A stretch of 64,000 nt of DNA from Lytechinus variegatus (lineage: Eukaryota), in the NCBI RefSeq assembly GCF_018143015.1, contig NC_054751.1:28449438-28513437 (forward strand), written 5' to 3'. The notes beneath the pieces are model-generated. The model worked only from the letters and a program-made list of their open reading frames with translations, was not told where the DNA came from and did not search any database. Position numbers and translations under genes: made by a program. This document shows positions 31,416 through 32,624 of the stretch, piece after piece; within the stretch, counting starts at the first letter, position 1, and each line of letters starts with the position of its first letter.

Positions 31416-31517
31416 GTGAAATTATTGAAGAAGGCATCAAATCCCAATATGTACTAGGTGAAGATGAAGCCTTGGTGTTGGAGTGTGTAGAGAACTTCAC
31501 CGATGACGCAGTTCCAG
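31416..31517 (+). CDS. MVP: MVP exon 10
   Basis: Acceptor tattgcAG; donor GTTAGT at 31518 runs directly into the (AGT)n tract. GEIIEEGIKSQYVLGEDEALVLECVENFTDDAVP matches EQLEQGIQDVYVLSEQQGLLL. Confidence 0.85.
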
Positions 31518-31518
31518 G

Positions 31519-32337
31519 TTAGTAGTAGTAGAAGAAGTAGTAATAGTAGTAGTAGTAGTAGTAGTAGTAGTAGTAGTAGTAGTAGTAGTAGTAGTAGTAG
31601 TAGTAGTAGTAGTAGTAGTAGTAGTAGTAGTAGTAGTAGTAGTAGTAGTAGTAGTAGTAGTAGTAGTAGTAGTAGTAGTAGTAGTAGTAGTAGTAGTAGT
31701 AGTAGTAGTAGTAGTAGTAGTAGTAGTAGTAGTAGTAGTAGTAGTAGTAGTAGTAGTAGTAGTAGTAGTAGTAGTAGTAGTAGTAGTAGTAGTAGTAGTA
31801 GTAGTAGTAGTAGTAGTAGTAGTAGTAGTAGTAGTAGTAGTAGTAGTAGTAGTAGTAGTAGTAGTAGTAGTAGTAGTAGTAGTAGTAGTAGTAGTAGTAG
31901 TAGTAGTAGTAGTAGTAGTAGTAGTAGTAGTAGTAGTAGTAGTAGTAGTAGTAGTAGTAGTAGTAGTAGTAGTAGTAGTAGTAGTAGTAGTAGTAGTAGT
32001 AGTAGTAGTAGTAGTAGTAGTAGTAGTAGTAGTAGTAGTAGTAGTAGTAGTAGTAGTAGTAGTAGTAGTAGTAGTAGTAGTAGTAGTAGTAGTAGTAGTA
32101 GTAGTAGGAGCAGCAGCAGCAGCAGCAGTTGTAGTAGTAACAGGTTAGAAGTAGAAGTAGTAGTAGTAGTAGTAGTAGTAGTAGTAGTAGAAGTAGTACC
32201 AGATTAGAAGTAGTAGTAGTAGTAGTATCAGGTTAGAAGTAGTAGTAGTAGAAGTAGTAGTAGTAGTAGTAGTAGTAGTAGTAGTAGTAGTAGTAGTAGT
32301 AGTAGTAGTAGTAGTAGTAGTAGTAGTAGTAGTAGTA
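31519..32337. repeat. (AGT)n trinucleotide microsatellite, about 820 bp, in MVP intron 10
   Basis: More than 250 near-perfect AGT units start at the donor GTTAGT of exon 10. They are interrupted near 32106-32235 by AGG/AGC/AGA variants and CAGGTTAGAAGT blocks. Confidence 0.95.
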
Positions 32338-32460
32338 GATGATGGTGATGATGATGACGATGATGTTGATGATGACGATGATGATGTTGATGATGATGAT
32401 GGTGATGATGATGTTCATGATGTTGATGGTGATGATGATGACGATAATGTTGATGATGAC
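32338..32460. repeat. (GATGAT/GATGAC)n microsatellite adjoining the AGT tract
   Basis: GATGGTGATGATGATGACGATGATGTTGATGATGAC... continues to 32460. Confidence 0.9.
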
Positions 32461-32515
32461 GATGACGGCAACAAAAAAAAACATTATGGTGATCGTACGT
32501 CTTAATAATTTCTAG

Positions 32516-32624
32516 GAGGGAAAGTTCGCAAACCTGGAGATCGATGGATGATCAGAGGGCCTAAGAGTTACATTCCTCCCACACAAGTCAAAGAATTAGA
32601 TCAAGGAAACTCTCAAGTCATCAG
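32516..32624 (+). CDS. MVP: MVP exon 11
   Basis: Acceptor aataatttctAG, donor GTATGT at 32625. GGKVRKPGDRWMIRGPKSYIPPTQVKELDQGNSQVI matches [28 protein letters not shown]. Confidence 0.9.

Follow-up and report, generated by a model that had tools for sequence, protein, structure and literature searches.

The polymorphic (TG)m(T)n tract of about a dozen units at the intron 8/exon 9 acceptor of CFTR has a proven effect on exon skipping that depends on its length. GC-rich intronic expansions induce retention of the host intron, according to Sznajder et al. (2018), as summarised in a review (PMC7145568), and long GA and GAT arrays have been found adjoining genes in the sea urchin Strongylocentrotus purpuratus (PMC3342357). 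This study concerns a long trinucleotide array in intron 10 of the major vault protein (MVP) gene of another sea urchin, Lytechinus variegatus, located within a stretch of 64,000 nt (hereafter the window; NC_054751.1, positions 28,449,438 to 28,513,437, forward strand). The intron consists of the donor GT, about 272 TAG-type units, 42 GAT-type triplets and 50 nt of unique sequence, so that approximately 95% of it is simple repeat, the GT and the last 50 nt being the exceptions. It is very probable that this is an ordinary U2-type GT-AG phase-1 intron of an intact, single-copy-looking MVP gene, the interior of which has been overwritten in the Lytechinus lineage by arrays made by slippage. The tract itself is an ordinary non-coding intronic microsatellite and not a new type of element, and a search of the sea-urchin microsatellite literature found nothing on the MVP intron 10 locus.

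MVP and its tenth intron in four sea urchins

The MVP exons were first placed on the forward strand, at approximately 18.7-46.6 kb of the window, by tblastn with a human MVP query. The crude spliced protein matched the Pfam entries for the Vault, Vault_2/3/4 and MVP_shoulder domains (PF01505, at 1.4e-54, PF11978, PF17794, PF17795 and PF17796), all above the cut-offs. Its closest relatives are the MVPs of Lytechinus pictus (85%), S. purpuratus (77%) and Diadema (64%). Exact spliced alignment gave 25 coding exons (16182..46608) whose translation is 100% identical to L. variegatus XP_041476940.1, a member of the L. pictus MVP cluster; the L. variegatus isoform X2 differs only at the N-terminus. 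The initial annotation was therefore right in naming MVP as the host gene and in its count of the flanking exons as coding exons 10 and 11, the former ending in GTTCCAG. A 283-aa L. pictus model (P0123), considered as a possible product broken at the repeat, diverges after exon 8 and was set aside as unrelated.

The NCBI model of XP_041476940.1 uses exactly the intron 10 donor and acceptor given in Table 1. The resulting junction, DDAVPG/GKVRKPGD (the slash marks the splice junction), is found in both L. variegatus isoforms and in the L. pictus model, the residues (P/T)-G-G-K are kept there in four urchins, and a Pfam Vault repeat (PF01505, profile positions 1-42 of 42) runs unbroken across it. 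The intron has the properties of a U2-type GT-AG intron, namely GT and AG ends, a U1-complementary donor, restoration of the reading frame, and conserved position and phase.

Comparison of the orthologous MVP loci of L. pictus, S. purpuratus and Diadema antillarum showed that the position and phase 1 of intron 10 are kept in all three. In L. pictus, the last 50 nt of the intron are nearly base for base the same as in L. variegatus, the array matches its consensus at 87%, and the GAT-rich region is orthologous to that of the window, although longer and more degenerate. The S. purpuratus and Diadema introns, which share this site and phase, consist of unique sequence. The donor 9-mer is identical in L. 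pictus and reads CAG/GTTTGT in S. purpuratus and CTG/GTATGA in Diadema. When the semi-unique middle of the L. pictus intron was compared by BLAST with the S. purpuratus and Diadema loci and with the window, no match was obtained, so that neither remains of the ancestral intron interior nor a shared mobile element could be recognised. From this distribution the intron is old and the array arose on the lineage to Lytechinus before L. variegatus and L. pictus split, and the difference in units between the two species shows a fast turnover.

Between L. variegatus and L. pictus, MVP has a dS of 0.18 and a dN of 0.0105 (dN/dS 0.058), which indicates a gene under strong purifying selection while it carries the array. 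MVP is also an abundant maternal protein in sea urchins, at approximately 10 uM in the eggs of S. purpuratus (PMC550661). Because the protein is both abundant maternally and strongly constrained, intron 10 would have to be removed efficiently.

Two observations on the remainder of the window may be added. MVP intron 4 (3.8 kb) contains a tandem duplication with a 216-bp period (1.8 copies, 91% match, 23494..23887). A scan of the whole window against Rfam returned no family match, and thus neither a snoRNA nor a vault RNA in or near intron 10, nor a vault RNA gene beside MVP in the flanks examined (1..16000 and 46700..64000).

Organisation of intron 10

The TAG array is the top-scoring tandem repeat of the window and lies far beyond chance expectation (Table 1). 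It had been described as a tract of about 820 bp starting at the first intronic base; the length and the intronic location stand, while the start has to be moved to +3 (31520) in the TAG register or +4 in the AGT register, as the GT at +1 and +2 is not part of the repeat. The accompanying figure of more than 250 AGT units is correct for the array as a whole and too high for perfect TAG triplets, which number 249, the remaining units being variants such as AAG, CAG and TAA. Downstream, what had been reported as about 40 GATGAT/GATGAC units proved by unit census to be 42 triplets, i.e., 21 hexamers, and the distance from the end of the repeat to the exon 11 acceptor, earlier put at about 55 bp, is 50 nt.

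The donor of intron 10 matches the U1-complementary consensus CAGGTAAGT at eight of nine positions. Scored against the other 23 MVP donors with a leave-one-out matrix, it reaches 10.1 bits, which places it among the strongest in the gene. The earlier proposal that this donor is built partly from the repeat was borne out, since positions +3 to +6 are the first TAG-T; any change in the number of units therefore regenerates the same donor. The 228 GTs within the pure array (context GTA/GTAGTA) score -2.46 bits and are very poor donors. A U12-type intron was dismissed by inspection, GTTAGT having no (A/G)TATCC box. As a separate observation, T at +3 (GTTAG) occurs in three of the 24 MVP donors, those of exons 7, 10 and 23 (26440..26448, 31515..31523 and 44692..44700); this donor variant is otherwise uncommon and seems to be well tolerated in MVP.

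Splitting the region 31515..32345 at each CAG(G/A)T yields four blocks, each headed by this motif, a probable copy of the splice junction in the internal blocks, and continuing in perfect triplet register after the 5-nt header. The header of the first block (B1) is the real end of exon 10 with the donor GT, and those of B2 and B4 form intact decoy donors of 7.78 bits that match the U1 consensus at seven of nine positions and fall within the range of the gene's real donors. Splicing from either decoy would leave UAG stops in the mRNA and yield an unproductive transcript.

The 3' part of the intron is organised differently. The GAT block comprises 28 GAT, five GTT, four GAC, three GGT, one CAT and one AAT unit, with a higher-order period of 21 bp, and none of its variant units makes an AG. 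Because the last internal AG is that of the final TAG-array unit, the acceptor is preceded by 175 nt free of AG; the corresponding stretch is 145 nt long in L. pictus and much shorter in S. purpuratus (43 nt) and Diadema (37 nt). One candidate branch motif, TCTTAAT, has its A 10 nt from the AG; the others are four copies of TGTTGAT in the GAT block, 62-146 nt upstream and inside the AG-free zone. The exon 11 acceptor (TTTCTAG/G) is weak, at 3.0 bits (rank 22 of 24), and the exon 10 acceptor is strong, at 15.3 bits (rank 2 of 24). The former also has the motif of a tandem acceptor of the NAGNAG type, TAGGAG, which is conserved in the four urchins (L. pictus, L001 17821..17826). Two L. pictus RefSeq models, XP_063963694.1 (861 aa) and XP_054765489.1 (860 aa), are one Gly apart at the exon 10/11 junction, a difference that would fit use of the second AG.

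Table 1. Coordinates and composition of intron 10, its flanking exons and the compared echinoid introns and arrays. Positions refer to the window unless preceded by L001 (L. pictus); a slash marks a splice junction.
Feature	Position	Strand	Length	Composition or remark	Basis
MVP coding exon 10	31416..31517	+	102 nt	ends ...GEIIEEGIKSQYVLGEDEALVLECVENFTDDAVP plus the first base of a Gly codon	exact spliced model
5' splice site of intron 10	31515..31523	+		CAG/GTTAGT; +3 to +6 (TAGT) are the first array unit	
Intron 10	31518..32515	+	998 nt	phase 1, GT-AG; opens GTTAGTAGTAG	
TAG array	31520..32338	+	819 bp	(TAG)n = (AGT)n; period 3, 272.0 copies, 94% matches, score 1427	Tandem Repeats Finder
Longest perfect run	31544..32107	+	564 bp	(TAG)188	regex run count
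Block B1	from 31515		626 nt	CAGGT (TAG)4 (AAG)2 TAG TAA (TAG)188 GAG (CAG)6 TTG (TAG)2 TAA	split at CAG(G/A)T
Variant tail of B1	32108..32140	+		GAG (CAG)6 TTG (TAG)2 TAA	
Block B2	32141..32199	+	59 nt	CAGGT TAG AAG TAG AAG (TAG)11 AAG TAG TAC; intact decoy donor CAG/GTTAGA, GT at 32144	split at CAG(G/A)T
Block B3	32200..32228	+	29 nt	CAGAT TAG AAG (TAG)5 TAT; GT mutated to AT, dead decoy	split at CAG(G/A)T
Block B4	32229..32338	+		CAGGT TAG AAG (TAG)4 AAG (TAG)28, then ATG ATG G into the GAT block; intact decoy, GT at 32232	split at CAG(G/A)T
GAT-type array	32338..32465	+	128 bp	42 triplets	Tandem Repeats Finder (periods 3, 6, 9, 21) and unit census
AG-free zone	32339..32513	+	175 nt	covers the GAT block and the unique tail	
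Sole unique sequence of intron 10	32466..32515	+		A-run, branch-site-like TCTTAAT (32500..32506), modest pyrimidine tract, AG	
Putative tandem acceptor	32513..32518	+		NAGNAG type, TAG/GAG	read from sequence
MVP coding exon 11	32516..32624	+	109 nt	opens G-KVRKPGDRWMIRGPKSYIPPTQVKELDQGNSQVIR	exact spliced model
L. pictus intron 10			1046 nt	opens GTTAGTAGTAGTAG, first 14 nt identical; about 575 bp of TAG, TGG and TAGTGG units, GAT-rich region, 3' tail	
S. purpuratus intron 10			405 nt	opens GTTTGT; unique sequence, no repeats, same site and phase	
Diadema antillarum intron 10			1327 nt	opens GTATGA; unique sequence, no repeats, same site and phase	
L. pictus intron 6 array	L001 10002..10775		774 bp	(GATG)194, 98% purity	
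L. pictus MVP array				(ATG)91	
S. purpuratus MVP array				(AGGGG)84	
Diadema MVP array				(ATT)86	

Origin of the array and rival explanations

Under the preferred reading, the simple-sequence arrays would have been generated by replication slippage, and the TAG array may have been seeded from the donor itself, as a purpuratus-like opening GTTTGTACC could become GT-TAG-TAG in just two substitutions. It may have been tolerated since its layout suits splicing, in that length changes regenerate a strong donor and the GTs within the array are poor ones; with the AG-bearing TAG array confined to the 5' part and AG-free GAT repeats occupying the last 175 nt, the choice of branch site and 3' AG would be left undisturbed. 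Part of the growth probably proceeded through blocks that were duplicated in tandem together with the junction pentamer CAG/GT, i.e., the last three exon bases with the donor GT; the remnants, two intact decoys and a dead one, lie 626-714 nt into the intron. The perfect (TAG)188 core would then be a recent expansion, formed later within the first block, and is probably length-polymorphic.

Several points weigh against parts of this account. The evidence that this donor and acceptor are used comes from the NCBI gene models, from conservation of the protein and from continuity of its domains; a junction-centred search (169 aa) for transcript-derived protein fragments returned none from Lytechinus, the best match being 50% identical. 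The only consensus branch motif near the acceptor has its A just 10 nt from the AG. The notion of a selected layout is statistically weak, because GAT-type repeats are AG-free by composition and their variants were spread by 21-bp duplication and are not independent. The exact copy number of the 564-bp perfect run depends on the assembly, and duplication of the junction is read from a 5-nt header and its context, the motif being absent from L. pictus.

The simplest reading of the header blocks is nevertheless that they are duplicated segments of the splice junction. That the internal CAG(G/A)T headers are instead chance point mutations within the array is unlikely, although far from negligible, given that CAG variant units do occur independently, as in the (CAG)6 at 32111..32128, that the shared non-repeat part is just 5 nt, and that the three internal copies, if descended one from another, would need just one origin between them. 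Conversion of CAG-TAG-TAG to CAG-GT-TAG is impossible in one mutational step, however, and the blocks keep perfect triplet register after the header and end in TAA, TAC or TAT. Junction-bearing tandem duplication is moreover documented at exon 9 of L. pictus, so that the process has a precedent in the same gene, where the end of an exon and its donor are repeated.

The L. pictus locus is of interest in its own right in this respect. A 103-bp unit made up of the last approximately 80 nt of exon 9, the donor CAG/GTTAGT and about 20 nt of intron is repeated eight times in tandem (L001 14365..15177), providing seven extra donor-bearing pseudo-exon ends inside intron 9. The counterpart in L. variegatus is one decayed extra copy at approximately 30360..30455, in which the donor is destroyed. 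A second junction-bearing tandem repeat in L. pictus MVP (L001 20659..21549; 161-bp unit, 5.5 copies) has a consensus in which GTAAGC follows the end of exon 14 (coding LAYFEQSIDSEYTGNK); exon 14 lies at 34462..34546 in the window.

It is improbable that the tract or its length is an assembly artefact produced by collapse or expansion of the repeat. A perfect trinucleotide run of 564 bp is admittedly hard to size exactly. The separate L. pictus assembly nevertheless has an array of similar total size at the same place, with the first 14 intron bases shared and the last 50 almost the same, and since this array is orthologous the one in the window is no invention of the assembly; its structured interruptions and blocks are also unlike assembly noise. 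The existence of the tract is thus secure and its unit count uncertain.

Still less probability attaches to the idea that the repeat is a functional regulatory element, either because the decoys send a length-dependent share of transcripts to nonsense-mediated decay or because the approximately 250 UAGs in the excised intron bind proteins. UAG-recognising RNA-binding proteins include hnRNP A/B-like and Musashi-like proteins. Stated more fully, and with equally slender prospects, the array might grow by duplication of junction-bearing blocks into a ladder of decoy donors and in-frame UAG stops, so that repeat or block number would set the level of unproductive MVP splicing, or the UAG-rich lariat might titrate UAG-binding proteins; if this is true, an abundant maternal protein would be under a tuning knob that is heritable and mutates fast. 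The strength of the two decoys, which is within the range of the gene's real donors, and the persistence of the array in a highly expressed gene since the split between L. variegatus and L. pictus (at the dS given above) both speak for it. The unit composition is unconserved, however, L. pictus having mostly TGG and TAGTGG units and no decoy motifs, and S. purpuratus and Diadema manage without any repeat.

The tract also contains a 234-aa poly-Ser open reading frame (ORF; 31503..32207, forward strand), the sole ORF of at least 180 aa in the whole window, which yields none of that size outside the repeat. The initial annotation had taken this ORF for an artefact of the repeat, and the reading frame agrees: continued past exon 10, the MVP frame reads GTT CCA GGT TAG TAG and so on, with a stop two codons past the exon and 233 stops in total, and a transcript retaining the intron would encode an MVP cut short at about residue 349 of 861. 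An extension of exon 10 into the repeat, by which poly-Ser or another homopolymer would be inserted into MVP, can therefore be dismissed as having practically no probability: the ORF that spans the tract is out of the MVP frame, exon 10 is joined straight to exon 11 in the annotated proteins of three urchins, the junction is crossed by a complete Pfam Vault repeat, and L. pictus has a different array (TAG/TGG) with an identical protein.

Array length, structure and known repeat systems

Three of the properties suggested earlier for the array, namely an unusual length, possible hairpin or slipped structures and a possible effect on the efficiency of splicing, were weakened; for a fourth, a high length polymorphism, the comparison showed rapid turnover between the two Lytechinus species. 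With regard to length, other echinoid MVP introns contain arrays of 260-774 bp (Table 1), so that the TAG array tops the range yet belongs to it. An array of about 106 bp of ATGG/GGAT type (77-83% match) in L. variegatus intron 6 (25755..25860) is orthologous to the (GATG)194 of L. pictus; both start approximately 20 nt past the exon 6 donor and they differ seven-fold in length, on account of which intron 6 is 636 nt long in L. variegatus and 1277 nt in L. pictus.

Folding with ViennaRNA placed (UAG)n below CAG, CUG and CGG repeats. The minimum free energy (MFE) of (UAG)50 RNA is -0.287 kcal/mol per nt, against -0.389 for CAG, -0.467 for CUG and -0.748 for CGG, and the predicted fold consists of A-U and U-A pairs around G-G mismatches. 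With DNA parameters, the values are -0.125 for the TAG strand and 0 kcal/mol per nt for the CTA strand. The whole of intron 10 has an MFE of -0.271 per nt, and the gene's other introns of about 1 kb range from -0.21 to -0.385, so that it folds no more stably than they do. The TAG motif is 33% GC and mixes purines and pyrimidines, and is thus neither GC-rich nor a homopurine-homopyrimidine mirror repeat. On these predictions there appears to be no basis to expect a strong structural effect of the array. An effect on splicing efficiency is likewise made less plausible by a donor that is among the strongest in the gene and by the low dN/dS of MVP.

No new mechanism is revealed by this locus, which is better regarded as a teaching and test case. 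It offers a clean natural example of an intron that is approximately 95% microsatellite in an essential, highly expressed and strongly constrained gene, and the parts that survive show what such an intron minimally keeps: a regenerating donor, an AG-free stretch from the likely branch region to the acceptor, and approximately 50 nt of unique sequence at the 3' end. It is also a natural substrate for the study of splice-site choice in the presence of two good decoy donors and of GT and AG dinucleotides by the hundred, may serve as a very informative length marker for Lytechinus populations, and is a caution for gene predictors in that a repeat yields the longest ORF in 64 kb.

As a new instance of a long intronic microsatellite, the array stands out by two neat properties: its donor is slippage-proof and its higher-order blocks carry the junction. 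The putative tandem acceptor TAG/GAG, known here from sequence and gene models, has the motif of NAGNAG acceptors, and the one-Gly difference between the L. pictus models would fit use of its second AG; this likeness concerns the 3' end of the intron and not the repeat. The GA and GAT arrays flanking the Sp185/333 genes of S. purpuratus and the segmental duplications of these genes (PMC3342357) are comparable as long simple arrays beside echinoid genes with local tandem duplication, although they are intergenic and mark duplication boundaries, whereas the MVP array fills an intron and abuts a splice donor. With the expansions of FXN (GAA)n, CNBP (CCTG)n and C9orf72 (G4C2)n it shares hundreds of units in the intron of an expressed gene, less than 1 kb from splice sites. 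Unlike these, TAG at 33% GC forms no mirror repeat and is no strong hairpin former, and the reference assemblies of two species both contain the array, in a gene that is under strong purifying selection; for this reason it represents a tolerated and not a pathogenic state. The (TG)m(T)n tract of CFTR is similar in being a microsatellite that is part of a splice signal in a conserved gene, with repeat length and splice-site sequence coupled. The CFTR tract, however, is short and lies at a 3' splice site, whereas the MVP array, known here from its sequence, lies at a 5' splice site with approximately 272 units and leaves the donor unchanged at any length.

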